Shown piece after piece: positions 16,380 to 47,345 of a stretch of 64,000 nt of DNA. The stretch is from assembly GCA_965221455.1 (NCBI GenBank), contig OZ244890.1, positions 415,623 through 479,622 on the forward strand, given 5' to 3'. Below the pieces are notes generated by a model, which saw nothing but the letters and a program-made list of their open reading frames with translations, was not told the origin of the DNA and did not search any database. Both the position numbers and the translations under genes were made by a program. Numbering within the stretch: the first letter of the stretch is position 1; every line of letters begins with the position of its first letter. This stretch comes from Gammaproteobacteria bacterium (GTDB taxonomy: Bacteria > Pseudomonadota > Gammaproteobacteria > Eutrophobiales > Eutrophobiaceae).

Positions 16380-16394
16380 CGACAGGCATAGAAA

Positions 16395-17048
16395 ATGAAA
16401 GCAAAGCAGTCTTGTACCGTTATCGTCATTGATGATCATCCCTTGTTTCGTAAAGGTGTTACTGAACTCTTGAACAGTGAAACTGATTTTGAAGTTATTG
16501 GCGAAGCAGCATCAGGAAAAGAAGGACTTGAACTAGCACTTGAATCAAGACCGGATATCATATTGCTCGATTTGAATATGAAAGACATGAACGGTATTCA
16601 GGTACTAACATCCTTGAAAAAAACCGATCTGGAATCTATTAACATCATGTTGACAGTTTCTGACACGGAAAATAATTTTTTAACAGCGCTTAGAAGTGGC
16701 ATTGATGGATATTTACTAAAAGATACAGAACCGGAATTAATCATTGAAAAATTGAGAAGTGCCATAAATGGAGAAGTTGTCATTGATGATAACCTGACCA
16801 ACCTCCTGACGAGTTCGATTCGTGATAATAAGCCGCAGACACCTGACGACTATAGCATGCTATCTGAACGAGAAATCGAAATAATTAAACTCATTGTCAA
16901 AGGGATGAGTAACAAGTTAATTGCAAAAACACTGGGTATCACAGAAGGTACTGTTAAAGTCCACGTGAAAAACATGCTCAGAAAATTAAACCTGAGTTCT
17001 CGTCTTGAAACCGCTTTATGGGCTATTGCACATGGTTGTACAGACTAG
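16395..17048 (+). CDS. response regulator, NarL/FixJ (LuxR HTH) family
   Basis: The receiver domain (VIVIDDHPLFRKG...ILLDLNM) precedes a LuxR HTH (LSEREIEIIKLIVKGMSNKLIAKTLGITEGTVKVHVKNMLRKL). The gene starts 16 nt after the kinase gene. Confidence 0.88.
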   Translation: MKAKQSCTVIVIDDHPLFRKGVTELLNSETDFEVIGEAASGKEGLELALESRPDIILLDLNMKDMNGIQVLTSLKKTDLESINIMLTVSDTENNFLTALRSGIDGYLLKDTEPELIIEKLRSAINGEVVIDDNLTNLLTSSIRDNKPQTPDDYSMLSEREIEIIKLIVKGMSNKLIAKTLGITEGTVKVHVKNMLRKLNLSSRLETALWAIAHGCTD

Positions 17049-17054
17049 TTCTGA

Positions 17055-19178
17055 ATGCACTCTTTATATAAAAAATTAGGAACTATTGTTGGCAACTTAA
17101 CTGAATCTGGTAAAAATATTATCTCTCTGGATAAAAATAGTGGTATCCCCGCTTTAATTAATGGAATTAACCAGACGATTTTTCAGATTAACAATCTTGG
17201 TCAATGGATCTACCTTAATGCTGAATGGGAAAAGCTAACAGGGTTTCCTGTTACAGAAACACTGGGTACGGACGTGATACATCATGTTCATCCTGATGAT
17301 AAAAAACAATGCGCCGAGTTTATACAGAGTATATATAACAATGCCTCATTATCTTCTTCAAGAAGAATCCGTTTTTTAACCAGGGACGCTCACCTTTGCT
17401 GGGTGAATATGCGTGCTAACAGTTTTACCAATCCAGTAAATAATCAAACCTGTCTGGTCGGCGTCATTTCTGATATAACCGAGCGTGTACGTGAATACGG
17501 ATTACATCAGGCAAATTATCGTACATTACATACGTTACTTAATAACTTGTGCGGACTGGTTTACCGTGGGCGTAATGATCGCGACTGGACCATGGAATAT
17601 GTTAGTGAGGGCAGCTTCGAGTTAACCGGTTATCATCCCTCGGAACTCATTAACCAAACAGTGACATTTGGCAGCCTTATCAAACCGAATGATCAAGAGT
17701 TGGTCTGGACCAATGTTCAATCTGCACTAAGAGAAAACCGTGAATACGACATCAATTATCGAATTAGAACCAGTAATGGTCAGGAAAAATGGGTTTGGGA
17801 AAGAGGTAAGGGTAATTTTTCCAGTAATGGCGAGTTATTGGGTATCGAGGGTTTAATTGTTGATATTACTGACTATAAAAGAAACAGGCTCAGGGAAAAT
17901 GAAGAGGTTCTTTATCGAACAAGAACGACATTACCTCAAAAACATTTGTTTCTGGATCGTCTGAGTATGGCAATCGCGAAAACTAAATTAGTTGACAATT
18001 ACAGTTTTGCTTTATTGTTCATATACATTGACCGATTCAAAAACCTGCAAGATAGATTTTCTGCAGAAATTATTGATCAAATCATTATTGATGTGAGTGA
18101 AAAAATCAATGGCATAGTCAATCCTGCTGATTCACTATGCCTCTTTGGTGATGGCGAATTTGGTCTATTACTTGAACATACCGAATCAATTCACGCTGTA
18201 CGAACAGTCACAAAAAATATCCGTAATGTATTACTTGCGCCTATTAAAATTAACGATGCAGATACTTTTTTAACAATTAGTATCGGTATAAGTTTAAGCT
18301 CGGATAATATAAAGGATAGAAAATCTGTGATTAAAGAAGCTTATACCGCCCTGAACCAGGCAAAATCACTGGGAGGTTCACGTTTTGAGATTCACGGAAC
18401 TGCTACCAATGCCAAAGTTTATGCATTGGATAGAATGGAAAAGGAAATCCGGTATGCCCTGAAAAACAATGAATTACTGCTTTGCTACCATCCCCTGATT
18501 TCAAGAGAAGATAATCTTGCCAACCATTACGAATGTCGACTTTACTGGAATCACCCCAGAAGAGGCAAAATATCTTCCGACTTTTTTTCACTGCTTAACA
18601 CATGCGATGAAATCGTAAACCGGCTAAATATCTGGATTATCGAATCTATTATCAAGCAAGCTAAAACCCTGGAGTCACAAGCTGATTTCGAAAAGAATTT
18701 AAATTTAACTATTCAGTTTTTTGGCGAGAATATTTTTACGGAGAAATTTTTACTTAAAATTGAGCAGCAGCTCCTAAACATCAAATTTAATAACATTAAA
18801 TTCTCAATTAATATATCTGTAAACAATATCCATACATTATCAAAAAATAGTATTGAAATATTGGATCGATTTCATAATCAGGGTATCGATTTAACCATGA
18901 ATACCGATGCATCCATCTTACCTTCAAGCGAGGATTTATTTGCGCTGGCAATAAATACAATAAAGATTGATAGTGCATGCTTGACAGCAAGTGTTGCAAT
19001 GCCTCGACTCACTCAAAAAGCAGCTATGGCGCAAATAGGATATATTCATGCTTTGGGGGGGAAAGTGATTATCAGCGATATCAATACAAAAGAAAGACTC
19101 GACTCGATGAAAGAATTTGATTGCGATTATCTCATGGGAGATTCAGTTTCACTGCCTGTTAATATTGACGAAATATAA
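17055..19178 (+). CDS. PAS-domain protein with degenerate GGDEF-like and EAL-like domains
   Basis: PAS repeats are followed by a GDGEF variant of GGDEF (LFGDGEFGLLL). The C-terminal region resembles an EAL domain but lacks a clean EAL motif (ECRLYW). It starts 7 nt after the response regulator gene. Confidence 0.6.
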   Translation: MHSLYKKLGTIVGNLTESGKNIISLDKNSGIPALINGINQTIFQINNLGQWIYLNAEWEKLTGFPVTETLGTDVIHHVHPDDKKQCAEFIQSIYNNASLSSSRRIRFLTRDAHLCWVNMRANSFTNPVNNQTCLVGVISDITERVREYGLHQANYRTLHTLLNNLCGLVYRGRNDRDWTMEYVSEGSFELTGYHPSELINQTVTFGSLIKPNDQELVWTNVQSALRENREYDINYRIRTSNGQEKWVWERGKGNFSSNGELLGIEGLIVDITDYKRNRLRENEEVLYRTRTTLPQKHLFLDRLSMAIAKTKLVDNYSFALLFIYIDRFKNLQDRFSAEIIDQIIIDVSEKINGIVNPADSLCLFGDGEFGLLLEHTESIHAVRTVTKNIRNVLLAPIKINDADTFLTISIGISLSSDNIKDRKSVIKEAYTALNQAKSLGGSRFEIHGTATNAKVYALDRMEKEIRYALKNNELLLCYHPLISREDNLANHYECRLYWNHPRRGKISSDFFSLLNTCDEIVNRLNIWIIESIIKQAKTLESQADFEKNLNLTIQFFGENIFTEKFLLKIEQQLLNIKFNNIKFSINISVNNIHTLSKNSIEILDRFHNQGIDLTMNTDASILPSSEDLFALAINTIKIDSACLTASVAMPRLTQKAAMAQIGYIHALGGKVIISDINTKERLDSMKEFDCDYLMGDSVSLPVNIDEI

Positions 19179-19233: not shown

Positions 19234-19875
19234 CTATATTGCTTCTTCCACTTGATAACCATACTCTGCAGCAGCATGTGTGATCACTTCAAAAAAACTC
19301 TGCCCAAAGGAACGTGCAACATAAACATCAAGGCTATCTTCATTTAAACAATGTATCAGAACATTTGTATGAAATAGACTCGTGACCTTTGCTTCGTCCA
19401 CCTTGAAATGAGAAACATCCATATCAAGCATTGTGCCTTTACGCAGTACGTTGCGCACGTCTTTACCGGAAATACGAATAACACAACGACTATGACTTTG
19501 ATCAGTGATTGCTGCCTGCTCCTCATGTACCGCATTCCTGATAAGCATGTCCAATTCACGATTTTCTTTTTCAACAATCAACCAACGTTCGGGACCCATC
19601 CAGATTGCAGTAGTTTCACCGAATTGAATCGCACTACATGCGGTTCGTGAGGGTTTAACACCCGCTGCCTGCTCAATCGCAATTGCAACTGCATCAGCCT
19701 GCTCTTCCCATGCGGCTACCTGAATAATGGATAAGGCACGGCGCTCGTTAAATATAACGCCCGGATCATTATTCTTAATTTCACCGAAGTTACCGGTTTG
19801 GTAGATTTCGTGTAATGCCGCACGGCGTGTTGGTGTTGCTTCAGCCACGAAGTCTTTCTCCCTCTGGATCGACAA
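19234..19875 (-). CDS. sarcosine oxidase gamma-like subunit (SoxG/MgdD-like)
   Basis: The 213-aa ORF is the last gene of the four-gene soxBDAG-type block and overlaps the alpha subunit gene. Confidence 0.6.
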   Translation of the reverse strand: MSIQREKDFVAEATPTRRAALHEIYQTGNFGEIKNNDPGVIFNERRALSIIQVAAWEEQADAVAIAIEQAAGVKPSRTACSAIQFGETTAIWMGPERWLIVEKENRELDMLIRNAVHEEQAAITDQSHSRCVIRISGKDVRNVLRKGTMLDMDVSHFKVDEAKVTSLFHTNVLIHCLNEDSLDVYVARSFGQSFFEVITHAAAEYGYQVEEAI

Positions 19876-22837
19876 ATACCGGATTTACCACTTTCATCGG
19901 TACCGTCCGGTTTCTTAACGGATAACTCATGTAAACGGTTTTGTTTTCCCAGGCCTCGAGTCCACCCTTAATAAAACCCAAAGCAATCGGATGATCCTTT
20001 TCCACACAATATCCGGTTGACGTGACATGACCTATCATTTCAACAGGTGGTGCTGCATGAGCATTGGTCACGATCTGTGAACCAGCTGTTAAATATGTTC
20101 TACCATCCAGTGGCACAAAACCTGCAATTTTTTCTCGATCAACTGATGTTAAAGCTTCACGATAGGCAAGACGTTTGCCAATAAACTCTTTCTTCTTCGA
20201 CATCATCATACCCAGACCCAGATCGTCCGCAATCGTACGCCCATCCAGCTCTGGGCCTGCAACATGACCCTTTTCCATGCGCATATTACCGAGTGTTTCC
20301 GTTCCGTAGGGCACGATATTGTATTCCTGACCTGTTGCGTAAATCTTTTCCCAGACATAACGTCCGTAATCGCAGGGCACATTAACTTCAAAAGCCAACT
20401 CACCTGAAAAAGAGATACGAAATAAACGGCACCTGGAAATTCCGGCAACAACACATTCAGAAGCACCCATAAATGGAAATACTGCGTTAGACATATCAAT
20501 GTCTATAAGCTCTTGTAATACCTTGCGCGAATCAGGACCGGCAACGGCTATCGCTGACCACTGCTCGGTAACACTTGTAACCTGAACACGCAGATCCGGC
20601 CAGATAGCCTGTAGGTAAAACTCAAGGTTGGACATTACCTTGACGGCATTAGCCGTTGTTGTTGTCATGACAAAGTGATTTTCAGCCAGGCGCGATGTTG
20701 TACCATCGTCATATACAATACCATCTTCACGTAACATCGCGCCGTAACGTGCTTTTCCAACGGCCAGTTTTTTCCAGTGATTAATATAAACGCGTTCCAA
20801 AAATTCCGCAGTGTCCGCACCCTGAAGATCAATCTTGCCCAGGGTGGTTACATCGCACATACCGACTGAACTACGTGTCATCCCTGTTTCACGAAGAAAT
20901 GCATCACGAATAGTTTCACCTGTTTTCGGGTAATAACGCGGACGTCGCCAAATACCGGCATCTATCCATACACATCCCTGTTCTCCATGCCAGGAATCTA
21001 TAGCTGTACGACGGATCGGCATAAAATGTTCACCAACTTCCGCCCCGCCAAGCGCACCCAAAGATACTGGTGTATAGGGAGGACGAAAAGTCGTCAATCC
21101 GGCCTGAGGTATTGAACAACTGCGGGCAGCCGCCATGATTCCAAGCCCGGACAAATTAGATGTTTTACCCTGATCTGTTCCCATGCCCAAGGTGGTATAA
21201 CGTTTGAGATGTTCAACTGAAACATAGCCTTCACGATGAGCGAGCCGCACATCACTGGCGGCGACATCATCTTGATGATCGACAAATTTCTTCGGTCGGC
21301 CAGACACAGGATCCGGTGCTTCCCACAAAGGTTGATAAGCCGTTTCATGCAAGTCATCCGTCACAGGAAGCGCCATGGCATCGGTGGGGAAACCGGCGCT
21401 TGTTGCCGCTTCCACACCGGCAAATGATCCGTCCGCAAAACAGGTCTTGAGGTCAAAACTGCCCCGAGCGGCACCGACAGATCGTTCGGCCTGCCTTGAA
21501 TCACCCGAAACAAAAATATGACGTTCTTCATTCCAGACCACTTTGCCCCCTGACTGACTAAACAGATGCAAGGCGGGTGCCCAACCATTCGACATGGCTA
21601 CCAAATCACAATTTATACGTCGTGATTTTTTACTTGACAGGGATTGCACATCCACCGCGTGGACACCGTCAGCATTACCATGTGTATCAACAATTGCATG
21701 GCCTTGCAGTATTTCCATGTTACGACTACGACATTCTTGCGCATAACAAGATTCAGTCAGACGTGAATCGATAACTGCTTCTATTTTTGCACCCGCGTCA
21801 CTTAAATCGATGGCAGTTCGATAGGCATCATCACATGATGTAAAAACAACCGCATGTTTACCCGGCAATACGCCGTATTCATTAATGTAGGCCCTCACTG
21901 CATTTGCCAACATAACATTAGGTCGATCATTATTACCAAATACCATGGGTTGTTCATGTGCACCCGTGGCAAGTACGACCTGATCTGCCTGAATATTCCA
22001 TATACGCTGTCGTGGTTTATGCTCTGTTGGTATGGGAAGATGATCACAGACGCGCTCGACACAAGCTATAAAATTATGATCGTAGTAGCCAAATGCAGTA
22101 GTACGATCAAGCATAAAAACATTTTCCATTGCTTCCAGTCCAGCAACGATTTCCTTGATCCAGTCTACTGCAGGACGACCATCAATTGCATATCGTTCAA
22201 AACGTAATTGACCACCTAAATTTGCACGTTCGTCGATTAGCATCACGCGTGCGCCACTGGCCGCAGCAGATTTTGCTGCCATTAGGCCCGCAGGACCACC
22301 ACCAATGACTAACACCTCGCAATGACGACTCATACAGTCATACGTATCTGGATCGGGAAGTATTGATGCTGTTCCCATACCCGCTGCCTTGCGGATAAAT
22401 GCTTCAAAGATCATCCATATTCTGGTACTACGGAATGATCCCATGAATGTTTTGTAGTAAAAACCGGCAGGGAGAAAACTCTTGAATAAATCATTAATGC
22501 ATTGTGGATCACTACGCAAGCTACCACCGCGGTTTTGACTTTCCGCGACCAAACCATCATAAAGTTCGACGACTGTAGCGCGTGTATTCGGTTCCCGACG
22601 CGCACCTTCACGCAGATGTACCATTGCATTTGGCTCTTCCGAACCCGCAGAAAAAACACCGCGTGGACGATGATACTTAAAACTACGTGCAACCAGCTTA
22701 ACTCCATTCGCTAATAAAGCTGAGGCTAATGTATCGCCCTGATAGCCCGTATAGTTTTTTCCATCGAAACTGAATGATATCGATTTCGTGCGATCAATAG
22801 ATCCACCTTGTGCCAATCTATTAACTTGCATCGTCAT
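19841..22837 (-). CDS. sarcosine oxidase alpha-like subunit (SoxA/MgdC-like)
   Basis: The 998-aa ORF has an N-terminal FAD/NAD Rossmann motif (VLVIGGGPAGLMAAKSAAASG) and a C-terminal aminomethyltransferase (GcvT-like) folate-binding domain. The size is typical of SoxA. Confidence 0.8.
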   Translation of the reverse strand: MTMQVNRLAQGGSIDRTKSISFSFDGKNYTGYQGDTLASALLANGVKLVARSFKYHRPRGVFSAGSEEPNAMVHLREGARREPNTRATVVELYDGLVAESQNRGGSLRSDPQCINDLFKSFLPAGFYYKTFMGSFRSTRIWMIFEAFIRKAAGMGTASILPDPDTYDCMSRHCEVLVIGGGPAGLMAAKSAAASGARVMLIDERANLGGQLRFERYAIDGRPAVDWIKEIVAGLEAMENVFMLDRTTAFGYYDHNFIACVERVCDHLPIPTEHKPRQRIWNIQADQVVLATGAHEQPMVFGNNDRPNVMLANAVRAYINEYGVLPGKHAVVFTSCDDAYRTAIDLSDAGAKIEAVIDSRLTESCYAQECRSRNMEILQGHAIVDTHGNADGVHAVDVQSLSSKKSRRINCDLVAMSNGWAPALHLFSQSGGKVVWNEERHIFVSGDSRQAERSVGAARGSFDLKTCFADGSFAGVEAATSAGFPTDAMALPVTDDLHETAYQPLWEAPDPVSGRPKKFVDHQDDVAASDVRLAHREGYVSVEHLKRYTTLGMGTDQGKTSNLSGLGIMAAARSCSIPQAGLTTFRPPYTPVSLGALGGAEVGEHFMPIRRTAIDSWHGEQGCVWIDAGIWRRPRYYPKTGETIRDAFLRETGMTRSSVGMCDVTTLGKIDLQGADTAEFLERVYINHWKKLAVGKARYGAMLREDGIVYDDGTTSRLAENHFVMTTTTANAVKVMSNLEFYLQAIWPDLRVQVTSVTEQWSAIAVAGPDSRKVLQELIDIDMSNAVFPFMGASECVVAGISRCRLFRISFSGELAFEVNVPCDYGRYVWEKIYATGQEYNIVPYGTETLGNMRMEKGHVAGPELDGRTIADDLGLGMMMSKKKEFIGKRLAYREALTSVDREKIAGFVPLDGRTYLTAGSQIVTNAHAAPPVEMIGHVTSTGYCVEKDHPIALGFIKGGLEAWENKTVYMSYPLRNRTVPMKVVNPVFVDPEGERLRG

Positions 22838-23115
22838 GCCTGTTCTCCTCCGAGTGACTTATCAGCCGGAGCCGTCGCCAACACTTCATGCGTTAGCGTG
22901 TCGCGTTTAACTTTCAACCATTGCCGACAGCCGTTAACATGATGCCAATATTCAAGGTGTGGTCCACAGGAATTATTGCGCAGATAAACATAATCGTAAT
23001 ACTGTGCTGCACTTGTATCTGCAGAGAGATCAGGATGTTTATTTATGGCATCGCCGCCATAGCTAAATTCCTCCATATTGCGCTCACCACACCAGGGACA
23101 ATTAATTCGAATCAT
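22834..23115 (-). CDS. sarcosine oxidase delta-like subunit (SoxD/MgdB-like)
   Basis: The 93-aa protein begins MIRINCPWCGERNMEEF (SoxD-type Zn-ribbon-like N-terminus). It overlaps the alpha subunit start by 4 nt. Confidence 0.8.
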   Translation of the reverse strand: MIRINCPWCGERNMEEFSYGGDAINKHPDLSADTSAAQYYDYVYLRNNSCGPHLEYWHHVNGCRQWLKVKRDTLTHEVLATAPADKSLGGEQA

Positions 23116-23127
23116 TATGCAATTCCT

Positions 23128-24387
23128 CTAGTGTGCCCCGGGAACGGGACCCATGCCCTTTTCATCAATGGTGTAACCGTGTTCAAAGCGGGTCAGCGTA
23201 AAATTTTCATTTAGTTTATGCGGCTGATTATTTGCTATAGTATGGGCGAAACACCAGCCTGCAGCCGGAGTCGCCTTAAAGCCGCCGTAACACCAGCCAC
23301 CATTAAGATAAAGGCCTTTAATCGGTGTTGTACTAATGATCGGACTACCGTCCATAGACATATCCATGATACCGGCCCAGTGCCGTAATAGTCGAATACG
23401 TCCTATTGTCGGCATTAAAGCCATGCCCGCTTGCGATACATGATTCACCATAGGAAAATTACCGCGCTGTGCATAAGAATTATAGCCATCCAGATCACCA
23501 CCAAATACGAGACCACCTTTGTCTGATTGGCTAACATAAAAATGTCCAGCACCGAATGTACAAACTGTATCAATAAAAGGTTTTAAAGGCTCTGATACCA
23601 TGGCCTGCAAGCTATGACTTTCGATAGGCAAACGATTTAAGCCTGCCATTGCACATAATCGAGAGGTATTTCCGGCAACAGCAATGCCTACTTTCCCTGC
23701 CTTGATTGCTCCGCGAGAAGTTTGCAATCCTTCAACTTGTCCATTCTGTATATCAAAACCGGTTACTTCACAATTTTGAATTATATCGATACCCAAACTA
23801 TCTGCCGCACGAGCGTAGCCCCAGGCAACCGCATCATGTCGTGCCGTTCCGGCACGTGGCTGTCGCAAGCCACCATAAACCGGAAAGCGAGCTCTATCTG
23901 AGTAATCCAGCATTTGCAAGTGTTCTTTAACTTGATCACGAGTCAATAACTCGGCATCAATGCCATTCAAACGCATGGCATTACCACGGCGAGCAAAACT
24001 GTCCATCTGTGCATCGGAATGAGCAACATTAATGATGCCGCGCTGGGAAAACATGACGTTGTAATTTAATTCTTGCGCCAATTCTTCCCATAGCTTCATG
24101 GCATATTCATAAAAATGCGCATTATCCTCCAGCATATAATTGGAACGAATGATGGTCGTATTTCGACCGACATTGCCACTGCCTAACCAGCCTTTTTCGC
24201 AGACTGCAATATTAGTCATGCCGTGTAGCCTGGCAAGGTAATACGCTGCTGCCAAACCATGTCCACCGCCGCCAATAATGATAGCGTCATATTCCCGTTT
24301 CGGTTCCGGGTCGCGCCAGGCACGCTGCCAGTGCTTTTGCCCGGTTAGCCCTCCCCTGATAACTTCCAAAACTGAATATCGATTCAT
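23128..24387 (-). CDS. sarcosine oxidase beta-like subunit (SoxB/MgdA-like), FAD-dependent
   Basis: The FAD motif AIIIGGGGHGLAAAYYLA is present. The start is placed at 24387 (MNRYSVL), which is preceded by a strong RBS aaaggag; the ORF finder extended the frame to 24426. Confidence 0.8.
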   Translation of the reverse strand: MNRYSVLEVIRGGLTGQKHWQRAWRDPEPKREYDAIIIGGGGHGLAAAYYLARLHGMTNIAVCEKGWLGSGNVGRNTTIIRSNYMLEDNAHFYEYAMKLWEELAQELNYNVMFSQRGIINVAHSDAQMDSFARRGNAMRLNGIDAELLTRDQVKEHLQMLDYSDRARFPVYGGLRQPRAGTARHDAVAWGYARAADSLGIDIIQNCEVTGFDIQNGQVEGLQTSRGAIKAGKVGIAVAGNTSRLCAMAGLNRLPIESHSLQAMVSEPLKPFIDTVCTFGAGHFYVSQSDKGGLVFGGDLDGYNSYAQRGNFPMVNHVSQAGMALMPTIGRIRLLRHWAGIMDMSMDGSPIISTTPIKGLYLNGGWCYGGFKATPAAGWCFAHTIANNQPHKLNENFTLTRFEHGYTIDEKGMGPVPGAH

Positions 24388-25577
24388 AATAAATTCCGCT
24401 CCTTTTGATTTAGCCTGACTCGCCAATTTACAGCAGCTTCAACATAATCCGCGATTATAAATAAGTGGGGACATATTATGTAATCGTGTGAAGTATTTAT
24501 ATACCCTGAAAGTAATATTCCTATCGTGTACTCTGCACATCGCTTGATGTGGACAAGGTCAACTATCGGTATGTTCTTGATGCTTAAAAAGCAACCAGAT
24601 ACCAGGCTATTTACAGTTTCCTTTTACCCGTTCTTTTTATGGGTCGAAACGGGGAAATGCGACCACAGTTCTCGGTAACCGCTTTTGATGTCCATCCAAT
24701 TTTCCACCTTACTACCGATCACGGAACATCCTGTTTTCATTTTACAAAGGGCGATATTTTTGCCGATAACAGGTGAAAAGTTGCACTAGCTGTTGTACCA
24801 ATCTGCTCTTTACCAATATAAACACCGTCATCATGAGATACCCACTTCCTCACCCGCAACCGAAAGCTCCAGGCCGGTGAGTTTTATCTATGGATTTTCC
24901 TTATTTCTGACAATGGCCAGAGGCATACGCACCTTAAGCAATACCAGCATAATTGAGAATATAAATCCTTAACACCAAACCATTCATTGAACGTAACGGA
25001 ATATTCGGGCTTCAGCCTAAAGTTTTCCTATGATGGCAAAGTCACGGTATTCAACATTTTCACATAAGTTAGAAGCGGAATCATCCGGATAGACATAGGA
25101 CCAACACTAAAGAATCCAGGCTAAACCCAGTCTTGAGGATAGAGCCACTCCAGCCGACACAGGGACCAACGATGGCATTGATCTTGTTATTTAGTATCAC
25201 AGGTACCCAGCTGAGTACCCGTTCCCCTCGTAACACAGTCATTGGGATCGCAGTTGAAGTGTAGGAAATAAATTATTCGCCGCATAAAAACCCACACAGG
25301 CACCAGCATTATGAGTCCAGGTAACGGTTGCTTCCGGAAACGGGAACTCGCCATCGTTTAGTTTCCGACTCACCTCCAAAAACTTAACCAGTGGGCGAAC
25401 TCTACCCAAGTACTGATTGTGCCATCAAGGACATCACTATGGATCCGCTTCTTCTTCATGAACCCACACATAACCCAAAAAAAACTATTCATTCCAGACC
25501 CCTATATGGTAAACATTAAAGAATACCTGTACCGCAGAAAACTCTAACCTACCCAGAAATCTCCCTTAAAAAAGTTA

Positions 25578-25967
25578 CTAACTGAATTTTTCATACGCTT
25601 TTCTCAAATCAACCATCGGATGATTTGTTGACATCTGAAACTTTACTAACAACTCGCGTGCAATCATATCGCGATCCTGTTGGTTATCAGGCATCTCCAT
25701 ATCTTCCGGCACAGTAACCCAGCCATTATTGTTACGATCAAATACTGCTGCACGACCTTCTTCATAACCCATGTGTACATCTTCCAGCCAATTCAGATCC
25801 TTCCAGCCCATAACCTCGATATATTTTTTAAGGAATGGCGTTATCCTGCCCAGATCAGGCACAAGGTTCACATCATAGCGATAACCGATATGTTGGCCGA
25901 TAATCTTCTCACGCTCCTCATCAAGACCATCACCCTCTAAAAAATGATTAATATCTTTCTTGCTCAT
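25578..25967 (-). CDS. hypothetical protein (129 aa), likely co-transcribed with mgsC-like gene
   Basis: The ORF lies 23 nt downstream of the mgsC-like stop. It has no recognisable motif. Confidence 0.45.
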   Translation of the reverse strand: MSKKDINHFLEGDGLDEEREKIIGQHIGYRYDVNLVPDLGRITPFLKKYIEVMGWKDLNWLEDVHMGYEEGRAAVFDRNNNGWVTVPEDMEMPDNQQDRDMIARELLVKFQMSTNHPMVDLRKAYEKFS

Positions 25968-25990
25968 GATTTTCCCCCAACAAAATTATT

Positions 25991-27337
25991 CTAGAAACGT
26001 GTCATATCCGGACGACCAACTGTGTATTGTGATCCGGCCAATGGAACCTGCGCTATCGCAGAAGCTTCCATGGTTAAGGCAGCCAAATCTTCCGGTTCCA
26101 ATGAATGAATGTCGGTCTTGCCACAAGCGCGGGCAAACAATTGAGCTTCAATCGTCAGTGTATGCAAGAAATTGTAAACACGAATAGCTGCTTCATCCGG
26201 ATTCAATCGAGCACGCAATTTCGGATCCTGTGTGGCCACACCCACTGGACAACGACCTGTATGACAGTGATAACAAGAACCAGCCGGGACACCCATCTCT
26301 TCTTCATAATCTGCTTCAGGAATATCTTTATTACAGTTCAATGCCATCAATGCTGAATGACCTATTGCAACTGCATCTGCACCCAACGCAATCGCTTTCG
26401 CCAAATCAGCACCGTTACGTATACCACCGGCATAGACCAACGTAATTTTGCCATCCATACCAACGTCCTGAATAGCCCGGCGTGCCTGGCGAATCGCACC
26501 AATACCGGGAACACCTGTATCTTCCGTAGCTAAATGTGGCCCGGCACCGGTACCTCCTTCCATACCGTCGATGTAAATAGAATCAGGATCGGTTTTAGCA
26601 GCCATACGTACATCGTCATAAACACGTGCCGCACCCAGTTTCAACTGAATCGGGATCTGACCATCCGTTGCCTGCCGTATTTCCTGAATTTTCAGAGCCA
26701 GATCATCCGGTCCCATCCAGTCAGGATGACGTGCAGGCGAACGCTGATCAATACCAGCCGGTAATGAACGCATTTCGGCAACCTGATCGGTCACTTTTTG
26801 ACCCATTAAGTGTCCACCTAAACCAACCTTACAACCCTGACCAATGAAAAATTCAATCGCATCCGCCAGGCGCAAATGTTGCGGGTTAAAACCGTAGCGA
26901 GACTGAATGCATTGATAAAACCATTTTTCTGAATAACGACGTTCATCAGGAATCATGCCGCCCTCACCAGAGCAAGTGGCAGTACCAGCCATAGTTGCTC
27001 CACGTGCCAGTGCTGTTTTGGCTTCATAGCTTAAGGCACCAAAACTCATGCCGGTAATATAAACCGGGATATCCAGTTCCAGTGGGCGTTTGGCACATGG
27101 ACCAATAACGGTTTTTGTTGTACATTTTTCTCGATAACCTTCAATTACAAAACGGGTTAATGTACCCGGCATAAAAGTGAGATCATCCCATGTCGGAATT
27201 TTCTTGAATAATGAAAAACCACGCATCCGATATCGACCGAGTTCAGCCTTAACGTGGATATCATTAATAACTTCGGGTGGAAATATAAAACTATCACCCA
27301 AATGATATTTTTTGGCATCATCTTTTACTGAAGACAT
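25991..27337 (-). CDS. glutamate synthase FMN-binding domain-like protein (N-methylglutamate synthase subunit C-like)
   Basis: The protein is homologous to the GltB FMN/Fe-S domain (GIDQRSPARHPDW...LVYAGGIRNGADLAKAIALGADAVAIG, with a C-terminal Cys cluster). The start chosen at 27337 (MSSVKDD...) has an RBS and leaves a 25-nt gap to the upstream gene. Confidence 0.8.
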   Translation of the reverse strand: MSSVKDDAKKYHLGDSFIFPPEVINDIHVKAELGRYRMRGFSLFKKIPTWDDLTFMPGTLTRFVIEGYREKCTTKTVIGPCAKRPLELDIPVYITGMSFGALSYEAKTALARGATMAGTATCSGEGGMIPDERRYSEKWFYQCIQSRYGFNPQHLRLADAIEFFIGQGCKVGLGGHLMGQKVTDQVAEMRSLPAGIDQRSPARHPDWMGPDDLALKIQEIRQATDGQIPIQLKLGAARVYDDVRMAAKTDPDSIYIDGMEGGTGAGPHLATEDTGVPGIGAIRQARRAIQDVGMDGKITLVYAGGIRNGADLAKAIALGADAVAIGHSALMALNCNKDIPEADYEEEMGVPAGSCYHCHTGRCPVGVATQDPKLRARLNPDEAAIRVYNFLHTLTIEAQLFARACGKTDIHSLEPEDLAALTMEASAIAQVPLAGSQYTVGRPDMTRF

Positions 27338-27362
27338 TTTTTGATCCTCTATTCTCTTTCTG

Positions 27363-28208
27363 TTAAAGCACCAGTTTCTTTTCGGTCGGTTCAAGGTTGT
27401 CATAATTCCACAACTGTTTACCGGATTCAATTTTAGTTATATTTTCAACACCGTTGGGTGCTTCCATATCGTATAACGCTAATTTGCCTTTTAGATATTC
27501 AATATCCAGTTCAGTCAATTCACCTTCAACAGCATCGACACCCAGACTTTTGGCCTTACCGGCAAGATAGATTGTACCGTCATACATGGAATCGCCCAGA
27601 TTCTCATCGGCGTCACCGAGGATGATCATGCGACCGCGTTGCATCATAAAACCGGTGAAAGCACCCACACTGTCACCCACAATGATCGTGCCACCCTTCT
27701 GATCGATGCCAACACGTGCACCTGCACGTCCTTTACAAACCAAATCGCCACCACGAATTGCAGCTCCAAAAAGTGAGCCGGCATTTTTTTCGATAACAAG
27801 AGTGCCTGCCATCATGTTTTCTGCGCAGGACCAACCGACCCGACCGTTAATACGTACATTTGGTCCATCAATAAGACCACAGGCAAAATAACCCAGACTG
27901 CCCTGAAAATTTAGATTGAGACGATTAAGAATACCGACACCCAGGGCATGCTTACCCATTGGATTTTTAACTGTGATCGTGCCATAACCCTCTTTCACCA
28001 ATTCACGAATTTTGATGTTGATTTCAGTATTTTCCATATCAGCACAATCAAATTCTGTTGCCTTGTCAAAATCGACTTCATCGGCATAAGCATGAACATA
28101 GTTCTCTTCTTCGGCAGCAGAAAAATACATTTGCTGAGTACGCCCCGCTAACTGCTCCTCGTGCAGACCCATTTCATATGACTTATGATCTTTATTTACG
28201 TTTGCCAT
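27363..28208 (-). CDS. GXGXG-motif glutamate synthase domain-3-like protein (MgsB-like)
   Basis: The GltB C-terminal domain signature is present (GVGILNRLNLNFQGSLGYFACGLIDG...). The start is uncertain: the acidic N-terminal roughly 55 aa has no counterpart in the paralog at 40129, so 28037 is an alternative start. Confidence 0.75.
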   Translation of the reverse strand: MANVNKDHKSYEMGLHEEQLAGRTQQMYFSAAEEENYVHAYADEVDFDKATEFDCADMENTEINIKIRELVKEGYGTITVKNPMGKHALGVGILNRLNLNFQGSLGYFACGLIDGPNVRINGRVGWSCAENMMAGTLVIEKNAGSLFGAAIRGGDLVCKGRAGARVGIDQKGGTIIVGDSVGAFTGFMMQRGRMIILGDADENLGDSMYDGTIYLAGKAKSLGVDAVEGELTELDIEYLKGKLALYDMEAPNGVENITKIESGKQLWNYDNLEPTEKKLVL

Positions 28209-29134
28209 ACTAAAACCTCCCCCTGATATGGATCGAATGTATCAATTTCTCTCGGGAAAATACTGCGAATGGCGATCTCTTCCGATGCTAAACCAACAAA
28301 CTCATCACTTTCATATATCACCATCGGTTTCGCCGACATGGTATCTTTAGCCATACCCAGCTGATCTTTGGTTGCAACCAGGTAGGAAAACACACCGTCC
28401 AGATAGCTAACAGAACTTTGCATGGCTTCTTCCAGACTATCTCCATGGTCTATTCGATCAGCGATGTACACGGCGATTAATTCCGAGTCGCAATTGGACA
28501 TAAAGCGATGTCCCCGACGTTCCAAATCACGACGATGCGTCCAGTAATTAGTCAACTGACCGTTATGCACTACGGATACATCACTAAACGGGTAAGCCCA
28601 ATAAGGATGAGCAGAACGTATGTCAACGTCCGATTCGGTTGCCATACGCGTATGACCAATTGCATGCGTTCCTTCAAAGTCATCCAAACCGTACTGTTCT
28701 GTTACCATCATGGAATCGCCCATGTCTTTAATTAATTCCAAAGCATTACCAACGGACAAAACTTCAACACCATCAACATCCTCTATATAATCAATCAATC
28801 GCCGCAAATCGCCATCAAAACCAAAAACATAACGATGTGCATACGCTGTTGACGCTTTTTGATCCCTGATTTTGGCACCCATCTCCTGCATACGTGCCTC
28901 AACCTGTTCCTCCCGTTCCTTAACCTGTTTGTTAATATCAAAACCGGTATTCATTTCTTCCTGCTCGGCAGTTTTAAACCGCATCACAAAATCATCTGAA
29001 TTTGCATTGCCATAAAGTGCAAACCCGGTTGAATCCGGCCCCCTATGTCTCAAAGCCTGAAGCATGGAAGACATTTCTGCACCAATGTTCGAACTTTGTC
29101 CTCCTTTCCAGATAAGTCCTGCAATACCACACAT
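28196..29134 (-). CDS. class II (Ntn) glutamine amidotransferase (MgsA-like)
   Basis: The N-terminus MCGIAGL has the catalytic Cys2. The body has the GltB domain-1-like/PurF-like fold motifs (THAIGHTRMATES). Confidence 0.8.
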   Translation of the reverse strand: MCGIAGLIWKGGQSSNIGAEMSSMLQALRHRGPDSTGFALYGNANSDDFVMRFKTAEQEEMNTGFDINKQVKEREEQVEARMQEMGAKIRDQKASTAYAHRYVFGFDGDLRRLIDYIEDVDGVEVLSVGNALELIKDMGDSMMVTEQYGLDDFEGTHAIGHTRMATESDVDIRSAHPYWAYPFSDVSVVHNGQLTNYWTHRRDLERRGHRFMSNCDSELIAVYIADRIDHGDSLEEAMQSSVSYLDGVFSYLVATKDQLGMAKDTMSAKPMVIYESDEFVGLASEEIAIRSIFPREIDTFDPYQGEVLVWQT

Positions 29135-29241
29135 AAGCTTTTCCTCAATAAAAAATTAAAAACATTGCTGTATCAGCAAACAGCTACAACGTCCAAACGT
29201 CAGATACCCACCCGAAAAAAATATCGGATGAGCAATTTAAC

Positions 29242-30711
29242 TTACGGCAAACAGTCCATATAGGTCTCTTGATCCCAATCTGTAACAGTCGCGTTATATT
29301 TTTCCCATTCATCACGTTTGTAATGTTCGTACACCTTATACATCTCACCTGGCATGGCAGACTTGATAACTTCGTCATTACCAAGTTCTGCAAGCGCTTC
29401 ACCCAAAGACATCGGTAATTTTTTCACATCCTTGCCTTCTTCCATTGCCAAATAGATATTCCGTTCTTCAGCTTCGCCTGGATCAATCCTGTTCTCAATA
29501 CCATCATCAAAGGCTTTAAGCAGGGCAGAACCCATAAGATATGGATTCACCATTGAATCCACTGAACGGTATTCGAAGCGACCCGGAGCAGAGACACGTA
29601 AGGCACAGGTGCGATTCTGGTAACCCCAATCGGCAAAGATGGGGGCCCAAAAACCGGTATCCCATAGACGACGATAAGAATTAACAGTGGAAGAACCAAT
29701 CGAGGTCAACGCGCCCAGGTGTTTGAGCACGCCACCGATTGAATACAGACCTATAGGACCAGGAGCTCGTTCGTCAATGGAAGGATCCGGCATGAATTTA
29801 TTTTCACCACCTTCAATATAACTAAAGACACCGTCCATACCTGGAAGAGAATCAAAGCCCAGATTATTAACAACATCTGCACCACCTTCCCATAAAGACA
29901 TATTATGATGACAACCTGAAGCTGACACACCCATGAACGGTTTGGACATAAAACAGGCTATCAAACCATCTTCACGTGCGACCTGAGCACATATTTGACG
30001 ATAAGTCGTCAAACGATCTGCGTTACGCAACACGTCATCATATTGTGTATTGAGTTCCAACTGACCCGGGGCATCTTCATGGTCACCCTGAATGATATCA
30101 AGACCCATCTGCTGAGCGTATTCAATCACCTTCATAAAGGTCGGGCGTAATTCTTCAAATTGGTCTATGTGATAGCAGTTAGGTTTGGTCACTCCACCAT
30201 CAGGTTTGCCATCTGCATCACGCTTTAACCACATCATTTCCGGTTCGGTTCCACAACGCATATTTAAACCATGCTTGTCCTGAAATGCCTGATGGATGCG
30301 ACGTAAATTACCTCGACAGTCTGCACTTAAAATGCCACCCGGATTTTCACGTTCTTCACGATTACGAAATAAGGTACAGAACACACGACCAACACGCTTA
30401 TCCCATGGTAATTGACAGAATGTCTCTGGATCAGGAATACCAACCAGTTCCGATGCCTCCGGACCATAACCAATGTAGTCACCATGACGATCTATGAATA
30501 AGTTTGCAGTCGAGCCGTAAACCAATTGAAAACCTTTTTCGGCAAGACGTTCCCAGTGTACAGCAGGGATCCCTTTACCCACTATCCGTCCGGTGACAGA
30601 AATAAATTGATAATAAATATAATCGACGCCTGTCTTTTTTATTTTTTCACTGACCTGTTTCACCAACTCGGCACGACCAGCCGCTTCCACATGTGCTTGA
30701 AGGTCTGTCAT
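29242..30711 (-). CDS. type III glutamine synthetase-like (gamma-glutamylmethylamide synthetase GmaS-like)
   Basis: The 489-aa ORF has a GS catalytic domain (HHNMSLW, NRTCALRVS...RFEYRSVDSMVNPYL). It is positioned directly upstream of the mgsABC-like trio. Confidence 0.75.
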   Translation of the reverse strand: MTDLQAHVEAAGRAELVKQVSEKIKKTGVDYIYYQFISVTGRIVGKGIPAVHWERLAEKGFQLVYGSTANLFIDRHGDYIGYGPEASELVGIPDPETFCQLPWDKRVGRVFCTLFRNREERENPGGILSADCRGNLRRIHQAFQDKHGLNMRCGTEPEMMWLKRDADGKPDGGVTKPNCYHIDQFEELRPTFMKVIEYAQQMGLDIIQGDHEDAPGQLELNTQYDDVLRNADRLTTYRQICAQVAREDGLIACFMSKPFMGVSASGCHHNMSLWEGGADVVNNLGFDSLPGMDGVFSYIEGGENKFMPDPSIDERAPGPIGLYSIGGVLKHLGALTSIGSSTVNSYRRLWDTGFWAPIFADWGYQNRTCALRVSAPGRFEYRSVDSMVNPYLMGSALLKAFDDGIENRIDPGEAEERNIYLAMEEGKDVKKLPMSLGEALAELGNDEVIKSAMPGEMYKVYEHYKRDEWEKYNATVTDWDQETYMDCLP

Positions 30712-30824
30712 TTTTTACCCCTCTCTTAATATATTAAGTTGTCATTAATCTATCGCAATAAAACCGACAGTGGTAATTCATCACTACCTTAAAAAGTCAA
30801 CTGTGACAAATTAATTACTTGTTC

Positions 30825-32168
30825 CTAACTCCAGGGGAATGGACTATTTGACACGGGATGTAACTTGCCTTCTGCATACCTTGAAAACCTGAACGGTTCA
30901 AGAATACTGGAAGTATTACCTGCAATCTCGCTTGCAACGAGTTTGCCTACACCCAACATCTTGTAGCCATGATTGGAATCAGCAATGAAATAACAATTTT
31001 CGCGAAACACATCGAAGACAGGAAAACTATCTGGTGTAAAAGCACCGATACCACCGGAAGCCTCTTTCTTATATACACCTGTTTGTCCCTCGAAACGTTT
31101 CTGACAATGAGCTAATGCCGAACACCACATATGTGCAAACTCATCACCCATAACATAATCCGGTGAATCAGGACCATAAGGATCAACAGCAACAGCATCC
31201 GGATCTGTATCAATCGGATCAGGGGCTGCGCCACCCTGAACACCGCCAAAATTAAAATCAGGCTTATAATAAATGCCCCACATCCTGTCTGTTACCAGCG
31301 TTCCATCCACATCGGAATAAAGCGGAGCATCACTATCGACATGAATCACCGGCGGCATATTGCCATCATTGGTTTTTAGATAATCGGGATTAACACCCAG
31401 AGTGCCTTCTTGCAATGACCAATAGATCCACATATTGACATTGTCGTGCACATTTCCATCCGTGCCTTTAATACTGATCGTTTTTGGCAACTCCAGCATG
31501 TCCCAGAAAATCTTGGCCCATGGACCGACACCAATAACAACATAATCACATTCGATCATCCCCTGGTCCGTTTCAACGGCTGCAATTGCATCAGAGCCAC
31601 CGGCATTTTTAAATCCGGTCACAGTGACACCGGATTGTATCTTTACACCTTCGGCTTCCGCCTTGGCAGCCAAACCATACATGGATTTTCGATTATTTGC
31701 ATAACCACCTCGCTTCTCATGGAGTACAGAAGTAATATCCCTGGCCTGCCAATCATCAAAGAACCCTTTCATATAGTTTGCACTATCATCCACACCTTCA
31801 ATAAAGACTGATTCGTAGGCAATCTCTTTTTGCTGCGCTGCTATTGTCGCCACATCGGCATGCATCGACTCCGGACTGATCTGCATATAACCAACCGCAT
31901 GGTAACTGTATGCTTCCGGATCGGATTCCCATACATCAACACTGTGTGCCATCAATTCACGCATCGCGGGTTGGTAGTAATTATTTCGAACAACACCACA
32001 CGCAATACCTGATGCACCCGCCGCAATTCCGCTCTTGTCAATGACCAGAACATCCTCACCGCCACCTTTACCACTTGCTTTCAATTCAAGAGCAAGATGA
32101 TATGCTGTACTGAGTCCATGAATGCCGGCACCAATAATCAAATACTTGCTGTGTGTTGGGAGTGTCAT
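30825..32168 (-). CDS. FAD-dependent oxidoreductase (DadA/SoxB superfamily)
   Basis: The N-terminal dinucleotide-binding motif YLIIGAGIHGLSTAYHLA is present. It is the first gene of the minus-strand block. Confidence 0.65.
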   Translation of the reverse strand: MTLPTHSKYLIIGAGIHGLSTAYHLALELKASGKGGGEDVLVIDKSGIAAGASGIACGVVRNNYYQPAMRELMAHSVDVWESDPEAYSYHAVGYMQISPESMHADVATIAAQQKEIAYESVFIEGVDDSANYMKGFFDDWQARDITSVLHEKRGGYANNRKSMYGLAAKAEAEGVKIQSGVTVTGFKNAGGSDAIAAVETDQGMIECDYVVIGVGPWAKIFWDMLELPKTISIKGTDGNVHDNVNMWIYWSLQEGTLGVNPDYLKTNDGNMPPVIHVDSDAPLYSDVDGTLVTDRMWGIYYKPDFNFGGVQGGAAPDPIDTDPDAVAVDPYGPDSPDYVMGDEFAHMWCSALAHCQKRFEGQTGVYKKEASGGIGAFTPDSFPVFDVFRENCYFIADSNHGYKMLGVGKLVASEIAGNTSSILEPFRFSRYAEGKLHPVSNSPFPWS

Positions 32169-32551: not shown

Positions 32552-33043
32552 TTATTTGATCTGTCGCAGCAAATAACCACCGTTTTCAAGGTTTTGTCCC
32601 GCAATGTGAAACTTTGCGGAATCAGGCGTAATTATGGTGTCTACCAGTTCAAAATCAATCGTCTCCTGACTGAAATCAACGACTGTATTAATATTTTTTC
32701 TGGCAAATGCTATTACATTTAACTGACCATTTGCCATTAATTGCCTACGCTGTTTCTGAGTCCAGTCCCACCCGAATGGACAATCCAGCACCTTACCTGC
32801 GCTTTGATGATTAATAATTACCCTTGCTTTTTCCCACTCAAATGGTGTCATGTCCGCCAGGTTTATAATTGTACCGGCATTTTTCCGTATACCTTCACTC
32901 AGCATGGAACGCAAAGAAGCGATATCTGTACAGGACTTGTATTGTTTAAAATAGAAAACAGATAACACGATGATACCTGCGATAACCGCAAAAACGACAC
33001 CCGGTTTACCGGGAATGCTACTTAATGCGCGTCTAATTGACAT
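32552..33043 (-). CDS. hypothetical membrane-anchored protein
   Basis: The ORF has a signal-anchor (MSIRRALSSIPGKPGVVFAVIAGIIVLSVFYF) after the likely start at 33043. The ORF finder extended the frame to 33166. Confidence 0.5.
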   Translation of the reverse strand: MSIRRALSSIPGKPGVVFAVIAGIIVLSVFYFKQYKSCTDIASLRSMLSEGIRKNAGTIINLADMTPFEWEKARVIINHQSAGKVLDCPFGWDWTQKQRRQLMANGQLNVIAFARKNINTVVDFSQETIDFELVDTIITPDSAKFHIAGQNLENGGYLLRQIK

Positions 33044-33214
33044 AGTTAATTTAGAAAGAATAATTTTTCCGGGACAATCAGGTACTGACCAGAACTCTAC
33101 AATAACAACTAAAAAACTTTCCCAAGAAAAAATCCCCTGATCACTGATAGTGAACAGGGGATTCATTTACCACTCACTTCACGTCAGCTATGACGTTTTA
33201 GCTTTGTACCAGGC

Positions 33215-33424
33215 TCAACGATCAAGTGCCTTATTGACCTCTGCCTTGCCCTTGATTTCCTTGATTTCAATATTGCATTCATCGGACTCACTCTTGAGTT
33301 GCCATATATGCCAGGCAAGCCAAAATGCGGTACAAAGTATAACCAACAATCCTTCACTGCCCTGAAATGGATAAAGTGCACCCATCTCCGCCAGCTTGGC
33401 AAAACTTTCAACACCATTTGACAT
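33215..33424 (-). CDS. small hypothetical protein (69 aa) downstream of amt
   Basis: It has one hydrophobic helix (LLVILCTAFWLAWHIW). Its position 35 nt after amt suggests co-transcription. Confidence 0.3.
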   Translation of the reverse strand: MSNGVESFAKLAEMGALYPFQGSEGLLVILCTAFWLAWHIWQLKSESDECNIEIKEIKGKAEVNKALDR

Positions 33425-33458
33425 AACAATGTCCTCCTGCTTGAAAAATTAATCTGAT

Positions 33459-38652: not shown

Positions 38653-38734
38653 TGCTTTGCCCCCTTCTCTATAATATTACCTTCTGCTGATTTATTAATA
38701 GCTGATGTGATAGTCCAATTAACAGATAAATCTG

Positions 38735-40090: not shown

Positions 40091-40128
40091 TTTCTTTCCT
40101 CGCCTGACCTCTATCATGACACCTGATT

Positions 40129-41101: not shown

Positions 41102-41107
41102 AAATCA

Positions 41108-43128: not shown

Positions 43129-43155
43129 TTCATCTTAACAGGTCATGAAAACACT

Positions 43156-46892: not shown

Positions 46893-47345
<453 letters not shown>

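Follow-up and report, generated by a model that had tools for sequence, protein, structure and literature searches.

A 64,000-nucleotide stretch of gammaproteobacterial DNA (GenBank assembly GCA_965221455.1, contig OZ244890.1, positions 415,623 to 479,622 of the forward strand; hereafter the window) is best explained as carrying a methylated-amine island made up of three units. These units are a soxBDAG-like run of genes (19234-24426), a canonical mgsABC-gmaS set (37345-42022) and, between the two, a paralogous module (25578-32168) whose genes are referred to here as DAO1, GS1, GAT1, GXG1, FMN1 and o129. Finding the N-methylglutamate (NMG) pathway in this setting is ordinary; what stands out is the additional module. 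On the basis of its gene content, its neighbours and the amine pocket of its ligase we tentatively propose that the module could serve as a glutamate-mediated route for dimethylamine (DMA), the product of trimethylamine N-oxide (TMAO) demethylase, in lineages that have no DMA monooxygenase.

The N-methylglutamate pathway in the window

A first-pass annotation had described ten genes at 19234-32168 as a complete NMG pathway cluster. All ten are recovered in place, on the minus strand, by calling open reading frames (ORFs) on the window, and searches with Pfam and NCBIfam domains bear out their order and domain content, including the encoding of the three domains of glutamate synthase (GOGAT) type, GATase, GXGXG and FMN, on separate polypeptides. 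The completeness of the cluster is a different matter: the window as a whole encodes the pathway, but the ten-gene block alone is incomplete, as the orthologues of the ligase and of the synthase lie outside it.

The sox-like genes encode a catalytic beta subunit (soxB-like, putative mgdA, 23128-24426, 684 bits on TIGR01373, above the cut-off), a soxD-like protein (putative mgdB, 22834-23115, 110 bits on PF04267), an alpha subunit with a GcvT-type folate domain (soxA-like, putative mgdC, 19841-22837, 1345 bits on TIGR01372, above the cut-off) and, last of the run, a gamma subunit (soxG-like, putative mgdD, 19234-19875, 99.6 bits on TIGR01375 and a match to PF04268). The heterotetrameric sarcosine oxidase TSOX (PDB 2GAG, 1VRQ) likewise has four subunits, the gene order soxBDAG and the same domains; the difference lies in phylogeny and gene context. 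Trees of SoxB and SoxA, the comparison that the first-pass annotation had called for, support its suggestion that these genes encode an NMG dehydrogenase instead of a true sarcosine oxidase. In neighbour-joining analyses both window proteins join a clade linked to mgs and gmaS genes (SoxB in 100% of 100 bootstraps, SoxA in 97% of 200) and fall outside the TSOX clade, which has 92% support in the SoxB tree.

Identities and neighbourhoods of SoxB point in the same direction. The window SoxB is 67-69% identical to beta subunits encoded beside mgsABC-gmaS in Aminobacter aminovorans, on Paracoccus aminophilus pAMI6 and in Rhizobium leguminosarum, and 54% identical to the crystallised sarcosine oxidase betas 2GAG_B and 1VRQ_B. 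A tblastn search of SoxB against plasmids yields two identity bands. The band at 63-69% consists of sox-like operons beside mgsABC-gmaS, namely those of A. aminovorans pAA01, R. leguminosarum and P. aminophilus pAMI6, the last of which has been published as mgdABCD (PMC4543880). The band at 53-57% belongs to a sarcosine context, with sdaB-soxBDAG in Ralstonia, soxBDAG-glyA-sdaA-purU and a BCCT transporter in Salipiger, and a creatininase gene with soxBDAG-glyA-sdaA in Mesorhizobium. Near the sox genes of the window there are no glyA, sdaA, creatininase or betaine-catabolism genes. Raw SoxA identity (46-49% to both) fails to split the Mgd and TSOX contexts, which only the SoxA tree separates. 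Overall, these comparisons support the assignment of soxBDAG at 19234-24426 as a predicted mgdABCD operon for NMG dehydrogenase.

A third clade of sox-like heterotetramers (99% support), separate from the Mgd-type as well as from the TSOX clade, adjoins the module in other genomes (loci L027, L031, L046, L047, L050, L053, L054, L058, L060, L064 and L081); its beta subunits are 40-46% identical to the window SoxB.

The first-pass annotation had missed a second GATase/GXGXG/FMN/GS set (GS, glutamine synthetase) at 37345-42022, arranged in the canonical order mgsA-mgsB-mgsC-gmaS on the minus strand. It comprises mgsA (41108-42022, GATase_6 and GATase_7; the ORF as listed truly starts only at its seventh codon, with MCGIVG), mgsB (40129-40818, PF01493), mgsC (38735-40117, PF01645) and gmaS (37345-38652). 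The product of the last scores 645 bits (645.5) over its full length on the GmaS family model TIGR03105 (cut-off 470; 469.6) and 607 bits, again over its full length, against the crystallised GmaS of Rhodovulum (RhGmaS, PDB 7CQL). In both this set and the block the synthase is made of three polypeptides in the order Ntn-GATase (with Cys1), GXGXG and FMN Glu_synthase, and the two sets are 31% (GATase), 38% (GXGXG), 50% (FMN) and 29% (GS) identical to each other. Measured against MgsA, MgsB, MgsC and GmaS of P. aminophilus, the proteins of the upstream set reach 53%, 55%, 73% and 58% identity, and those of the block 30%, 38%, 52% and 30%. Because the block proteins stand at 30-52% and those of the upstream set at 53-73%, the GS- and GOGAT-like genes of the block are ancient paralogues and not gmaS and mgsABC, as had been claimed for them; the orthologues are the genes at 37345-42022.

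Together with soxBDAG and folD (44064-44957, minus strand, THF_DHG_CYH domains, correctly placed by the first-pass annotation), the upstream set is best explained as the known monomethylamine route, in which methylamine would be converted to gamma-glutamylmethylamide, then to NMG, and finally to glutamate and methylene-tetrahydrofolate. True orthologues of the NMG pathway known from Methyloversatilis, Methylobacterium, Aminobacter, P. aminophilus and Ruegeria pomeroyi are present in the window as gmaS-mgsCBA and the Mgd-type soxBDAG.

A paralogous module linked to TMAO demethylation

The module resembles the NMG pathway in its architecture of ligase, GATase, GXGXG and FMN proteins and in the amine pocket of its ligase. 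It differs in its 29-50% identity to the canonical proteins, in the extra conserved genes DAO1 and o129, in GS1, where about 35 residues are inserted and the N-terminal loop is GS-like, and in a cysteine motif in FMN1. All its genes are on the minus strand. DAO1 (30825-32168, 447 aa) is a divergent FAD oxidoreductase of the DAO family, with a match to PF01266 over residues 9-226, that is, its N-terminal half only. GS1 (29242-30711, 489 aa, PF00120 in two stretches) is a predicted GS-like gamma-glutamyl-amine ligase and a paralogue of GmaS. It is followed by the class-II (Ntn) amidotransferase GAT1 (28196-29134, GATase_6 and GATase_7), the GXGXG beta-helix protein GXG1 (27363-28208, PF01493) and the Glu_synthase FMN-domain protein FMN1 (25991-27430, 300 bits on PF01645), the true start of which is probably an ATG 31 codons inward. 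The last gene, o129 (25578-25967), encodes a conserved orphan protein of 129 residues that matches nothing in Pfam or NCBIfam.

GS1 falls below the TIGR03105 cut-off of 470, with 300 bits (299.8) in two stretches, and it scores 180 bits against RhGmaS 7CQL; its best match in the PDB is an archaeal GS at 202 bits, and it carries the insert of about 35 residues mentioned above. The residues of the methylamine pocket and the catalytic residues of RhGmaS have been assigned in the structure paper (PMC7948447), whose residue numbering we verified and used in aligning GS1 to RhGmaS. GS1 retains K30', Y147, Q175, D177, E179, E186, N188 and R312, with Trp300 in place of the glutamate of the GS Glu flap. 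These pocket and catalytic residues are invariant in 63 of 63 GS1 homologues, and a true GS (that of M. thermolithotrophicus) differs at six of them. The shortened Asp50' loop with Ala48 that is typical of GmaS is not found in GS1, which has Val and a longer, GS-like loop (…STANLFIDRHGDYIGY…); Y174I, G231A and H237N are further differences from GmaS. By its retained pocket, GS1 looks like a small-amine ligase, and its substrate probably differs from that of GmaS. A substrate other than monomethylamine is indicated by the occurrence of both complete sets side by side in streamlined genomes and by locus L054, where GS1 and gmaS flank one canonical mgsABC. In cyanobacteria GS1 occurs alone, with either tmm and tdm or a copper amine oxidase gene as neighbours.

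Two further module proteins retain predicted catalytic features. GAT1 starts with MCGIAG, as do 44 homologues, and retains the Cys1 nucleophile. FMN1 has C366 and C386-x2-C389-x4-C394-PVGVATQ, which all 45 of the family members compared share. The corresponding site of alphaproteobacterial and SAR324 MgsC reads YDDWHEGKDPAG and contains no Cys, the MgsC of the window has one Cys, and an MgsC-type gene of SAR11 strain HIMB1427 (L075:18675-19991, 77% identical to the window MgsC) also has C-x2-C-x4-C; because of this SAR11 copy the motif is not strictly diagnostic of the paralogous set. It is located where GltB binds its 3Fe-4S cluster (the C-x-C-x4-C-P-V-G-V-A-T-Q region), which suggests that FMN1 may exchange electrons with a partner via a putative Fe-S site. 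The module has no GltD-type partner; in SAR324 a Fer2 gene follows o129. For o129 itself, an exhaustive search (289 clusters at 50% identity, 1.84 billion proteins) returned no distant relatives or informative domain fusions, and there is no fold match. DAO1 is a very divergent DAO-family protein, with a best PDB match of only 47 bits and no confident model from structure prediction; it is 63% identical to its copy in SAR11 HIMB1427.

The module and the sox genes are separated by a gap of 1151 bp (24427-25577), already noticed as a 1.15-kb interruption after the 129-aa ORF, which contains no ORF longer than 59 aa and is the longer of two intergenic stretches above 400 bp in the ORF set of the window. 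Within it, 24622-24914 on the minus strand encodes positions 683-780 of the 781 positions of a Tdm profile, with in-frame stops and a frameshift (independent E-values of 1e-10 and 1e-8 with the profile hidden Markov model; blastx agrees). This pseudogene is the decayed 3' end of a gene for TMAO demethylase (tdm), and the gap is thus the wreck of a tdm located after o129 in the past, an arrangement that is still intact in SUP05. The location of the remnant directly downstream of o129 ties the module copy of the window historically to TMAO demethylation. The remaining ~660 bp of the gap (24915-25577) have no recognisable content, with no match in blastx, blastn or Rfam searches.

Homologues of the module proteins are abundant. 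There are 3792 for GS1 (the best 120 listed are 82-88% identical), at least 8000 scored candidates for DAO1 (of the best 120 listed, nearly all are 447 aa long and they are 75-89% identical) and at least 8000 for o129 (the best 120 listed are 79-100% identical, and the few named ones are called 'hypothetical'). In a GTDB scan with one genome per species, GS1 relatives are found in at least 576 species genomes, the 80 retained of which are about 73-91% identical. These 80 come from Gammaproteobacteria (SUP05/Thioglobus, Arenicellales, Piscirickettsiaceae), Alphaproteobacteria (including Pelagibacteraceae), cyanobacteria, Acidimicrobiia and others; SAR324 also carries GS1 copies.

The neighbourhood of the module was analysed by calling and clustering ORFs in 85 loci with 10 kb on each side (1.36 Mb). 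The gene order DAO1-GS1-GAT1-GXG1-FMN1-o129 is conserved, and DAO1 adjoins GS1 in 32 loci. A tdm gene (DUF1989 + GCV_T, 55-58% identical to P. aminophilus Tdm) is present in 33 of the 85, as is a gene for a GntR regulator (33 of 85); a divergent Amt, often with a small ORF of ~70 aa, is encoded in 39, tmm in six, and a TMAO ABC transporter recurs near the module. Canonical mgsABC-gmaS genes are found in up to 13 loci (gmaS 13, mgsA 10, mgsB 8). The order in SUP05 is GS1-GAT1-GXG1-FMN1-o129-tdm-tmoXVW, and in SAR324 tdm stands immediately before GS1, with the canonical set adjacent. In Pelagibacter HIMB1427 (L075) the genes run tmoXVW, tdm, DAO1, GS1, GAT1, GXG1, FMN1, o129, amt, small ORF, mgsABC and gmaS.

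A comparable region of Ca. Pelagibacter ubique HTCC1062 has been annotated as SAR11_1303 (tdm), SAR11_1304 ('monomeric sarcosine oxidase'), SAR11_1305 (glnT), SAR11_1308 (gltB2), SAR11_1310 (amt), SAR11_1313-1315 (glxBCD) and SAR11_1316 (glnT/gmaS) (PMC3160333, PMC3870248). Judged by gene order, the module matches SAR11_1304-1309, DAO1 being the predicted counterpart of SAR11_1304. The HIMB1427 proteins are 59-81% identical to those of the window, and the shared neighbours are tdm, tmoX, the divergent amt and glxBCD-glnT. The window differs in that amt and the small ORF are upstream and not downstream of the module, tdm is reduced to a decayed remnant, and the module is followed directly by sox genes of the Mgd type. 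Cultured carriers of the module include HTCC1062, Ca. Thioglobus singularis, UBA868 strain IMCC57338 and Virgifigura deserti SYSU D60014 (L046). A literature search returned no paper giving SAR11_1305-1309 a function, and none on gamma-glutamyl-dimethylamide or N,N-dimethylglutamate.

In three loci (L001:19953-21059, L043 and L080) a GcvT-family protein resembling DmmD, with 40% identity to that of P. aminophilus, is encoded next to the module without DmmABC. This protein might trap formaldehyde on tetrahydrofolate for DAO1.

Candidate substrates of the module

Aerobic degradation of trimethylamine (TMA) proceeds via TMAO and DMA to monomethylamine, and from there through gamma-glutamylmethylamide and NMG to glutamate and methylene-tetrahydrofolate. 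Each of these steps has a gene in the islands described here except for the conversion of DMA to monomethylamine. The known genes for this step, dmmDABC, are missing in SAR11 without exception, as well as in abundant marine Gamma- and Deltaproteobacteria (Lidbury et al., PMC5520151). HTCC1062 grows weakly with TMAO as sole nitrogen source, for which an unknown Dmm isoenzyme has been suggested (PMC8918994), and in a study that calls the DMA route unknown, only one protein was induced more strongly by nitrogen limitation than SAR11_1304 (PMC3870248).

DmmABC consists of a DUF3445 protein, a PDR-type reductase and DmmA; no homologue of DmmA, DmmB or DmmC is encoded in the 85 module loci or in the window. 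Neither a GS1-type ligase nor o129 nor DAO1 is encoded in 80 dmmC-centred metagenomic loci (0.99 Mb), which carry tdm (26), tmm (17), gmaS/mgsABC (26-29) and a Mgd-type soxB (24) that is 63-66% identical to the window SoxB, and which resemble the TMA cluster of R. pomeroyi. Within the loci sampled, module and dmm are mutually exclusive. DmmDABC, with its heme-PAS DUF3445 protein, PDR-type reductase, DmmA and GcvT-like DmmD, occupies the same place in the islands, next to tdm, tmm and gmaS/mgs/mgd genes. It has no homology to the module, however, and its O2/NADPH-dependent mono-oxygenation differs from the ATP-dependent glutamylation proposed for the module.

From the gene content and the retained residues we infer the following scheme. 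GS1 would use ATP to join DMA to glutamate, forming gamma-glutamyl-dimethylamide, which GAT1 would hydrolyse. FMN1, together with GXG1 and o129, would add the amine reductively to 2-oxoglutarate to form N,N-dimethylglutamate, the electrons entering through a putative Fe-S cluster. DAO1 would then take one methyl group off N,N-dimethylglutamate, leaving NMG, and MgdABCD would remove the second. The occurrence of the module with DAO1 and with the third sox-like clade in other genomes would fit two such successive N-demethylations. It is conceivable, although doubtful, that the module is the monooxygenase-free DMA route of SAR11, SAR324, SUP05, Arenicellales and related marine bacteria, in which it would replace DmmDABC.

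Several points weigh against a role in DMA metabolism. The mutual exclusion with dmm is confounded by phylogeny, as the dmmC sample was drawn at 70% identity or more to a Paracoccus query and the GS1 sample comes mostly from Gammaproteobacteria, SAR11 and SAR324; the exclusion also covers 10 kb on each side of a locus and not whole genomes. GS1 has the same pocket as GmaS, so that monomethylamine would suit it just as naturally. Among cultured organisms, the closest GS1 relatives (54% identity) are located in clusters of the isopropylamine (Ipu-like) type. DAO1 is missing from the vicinity in SUP05 loci, and the tdm adjacent to the module in the window has been lost. When HTCC1062 is limited for nitrogen, SAR11_1304 goes up and SAR11_1305 and SAR11_1308 go slightly down (PMC3870248), so that DAO1 may act apart from the rest of the module. 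Lastly, some SAR11 loci have only the synthase of the module together with both ligases, and the module synthase may be the NMG synthase there.

The identity of the pocket residues with those of RhGmaS makes a second monomethylamine pathway a serious rival, although an unlikely one in our estimate. In such a pathway GS1 would form gamma-glutamylmethylamide, GAT1, GXG1, FMN1 and o129 would turn it into NMG, and DAO1 would oxidise NMG, with differences from the canonical pathway in affinity, regulation or electron coupling. The module often adjoins gmaS, and in several SAR11 loci (L066, L083 and L084) the 10-kb surroundings contain the module synthase only, along with both ligases. The price of this explanation is that streamlined SAR11 and SAR324, and the present genome, would hold two complete parallel sets of five or six genes side by side, and the flanking of a single mgsABC by GS1 and gmaS in L054 does not sit well with it. 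It would also make DMA a dead end in spite of the tight operon link to tdm in SUP05, and leave unexplained how SAR11 without dmm gain nitrogen from TMAO (PMC8918994). Less probable is that the module acts on another small amine (for example ethylamine, isopropylamine, ethanolamine or a methylated amino alcohol) in the style of the Puu (putrescine) and Ipu (isopropylamine) pathways, in which case the link to TMAO would come down to a common nitrogen-scavenging regulon. Like the module, these pathways begin with a GS-like ligase and have a flavoenzyme of the DAO family as partner. The 54% relatives of GS1, in Paracoccus sp. TOH p2 (L096) and on a plasmid of Ruegeria sp. SCSIO 43209 (L097), each lie beside a second GS-like gene. 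Their further neighbours encode aldehyde dehydrogenases, a class-I GATase and a gamma-glutamyl-GABA hydrolase-family protein in L096, and a cytochrome P450, a 2Fe-2S ferredoxin and a class-I GATase in L097, in keeping with Ipu-like clusters in which the class-I GATase would be the hydrolase. A PuuR-like regulator (42317-42970) and a class-I GATase (43093-43881) are encoded in the window as well. The subfamily of GS1 at about 73-91% identity, in contrast, is found repeatedly and specifically beside tdm, tmoXVW and tmm and not beside P450 or aldehyde dehydrogenase genes, and the partner of GS1 is a synthase of the Mgs/GOGAT type instead of a hydrolase with P450 or aldehyde dehydrogenase.

The interpretation of the first-pass annotation, which placed the whole canonical gmaS-mgsABC-mgdABCD pathway in the block 19234-32168, has in its favour that the order of GS-like, GATase, GXGXG and FMN genes followed by soxBDAG mimics published NMG clusters. 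We consider it improbable: the true orthologues lie 5-10 kb upstream, GS1 scores below the TIGR03105 cut-off, DAO1 and o129 are extra, the cysteine motif of FMN1 is absent from alphaproteobacterial and SAR324 MgsC, and the tdm remnant separates the module from the sox genes. An archaeal-style split GS/GOGAT for ammonia assimilation would account for the GOGAT-like cysteine motif of FMN1, for the archaeal GS as the highest-scoring PDB match of GS1 and for the linked Amt-family gene. This is very improbable, however, because the Glu-flap glutamate is replaced by Trp in GS1, which has GmaS-type residues where true GS differs, and because the HTCC1062 counterparts fall under nitrogen limitation while GlnA and GltBD rise (PMC3870248).

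Neighbouring genes and wider meaning

Upstream of the module, on the same strand, lie genes for a conserved hypothetical protein of 204 aa (32552-33166, cluster c43, no Pfam match), a hydrophobic small protein of 69 aa (33215-33424) and a divergent Amt-family transporter (33459-34895, PF00909, below the TIGR00836 cut-off), the predicted counterpart of SAR11_1310. The position of amt is as first annotated, and its product is 65% identical to the SAR11 copy. The small protein paired with it is 44% identical to the small ORF after amt in SAR11 and other loci, and an ORF of 81 aa in another frame (33184-33429, minus strand) is probably spurious, the real gene after amt being that of 69 aa. In L045 a gene located after amt and its small ORF encodes a protein 30% identical to the 204-aa protein, and L049 and L022 also have counterparts. 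The window gave no RNA match in Rfam or tRNA scans, nor did the surroundings of amt in a permissive Rfam scan; a riboswitch-like element reported upstream of SAR11_1310 has, by these scans, no detectable counterpart in the window. Promoter-like and terminator-like sites occur in the window in numbers similar to those of shuffled sequence, the former being fewer and the latter only modestly commoner.

The PuuR-like regulator (minus strand, HTH_3 and Cupin_2, a weak PuuR match) and the class-I GATase (plus strand, peptidase C26-like, PF00117 and PF07722) sit between mgsA and folD. This HTH-cupin family adjoins the module in 13 of the 85 loci, and the class-I GATase is a possible gamma-glutamyl-amide hydrolase.

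The rest of the window contains several features of other kinds. The regions 1791-4349 (minus strand) and 14751-19178 (plus strand) encode two PAS-GGDEF-EAL proteins and a pair of histidine kinase and LuxR-type response regulator; the signalling group at 14751-19178 comes immediately downstream of soxG, with its genes on the other strand. Pyruvate kinase is split over two ORFs on the plus strand, 5606-6124 with barrel positions ~104-205 and 6160-6762 with positions ~280-328 and the C-terminal domain, and is probably a disrupted gene; a gene for an IS-type integrase (rve) lies nearby at 9201-10049. A truncated rve transposase fragment (46899-47348) adjoins an ORF of 1250 aa (47511-51263) with a G+C content of 56-59%, compared with ~44% elsewhere, and only a faint fn3 match; this ORF looks horizontally acquired. 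At 52412-60788 on the minus strand, a PfaA-like synthase (KS-AT-ACP repeats-KR-DH, 2221 aa) and a PfaD-like enoyl reductase form part of a polyunsaturated fatty-acid synthase cluster.

Few gene sets in marine metagenomes are as conserved and widespread as the module, which is situated inside the TMAO and methylamine islands of SAR11, SAR324 and SUP05. Annotating its genes as gmaS, mgsABC or 'glutamine synthetase III' conflates two functionally distinct paralogues, and this would hold even if the proposed role in DMA metabolism failed. The literature since 2013-2017 regards these lineages as devoid of a DMA monooxygenase, so that DMA should accumulate, escape to the atmosphere and form aerosols. 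If the module does turn over DMA, this 'metabolic bottleneck', and with it the choice of marker genes for the marine cycling of DMA and monomethylamine, would need to be revised.

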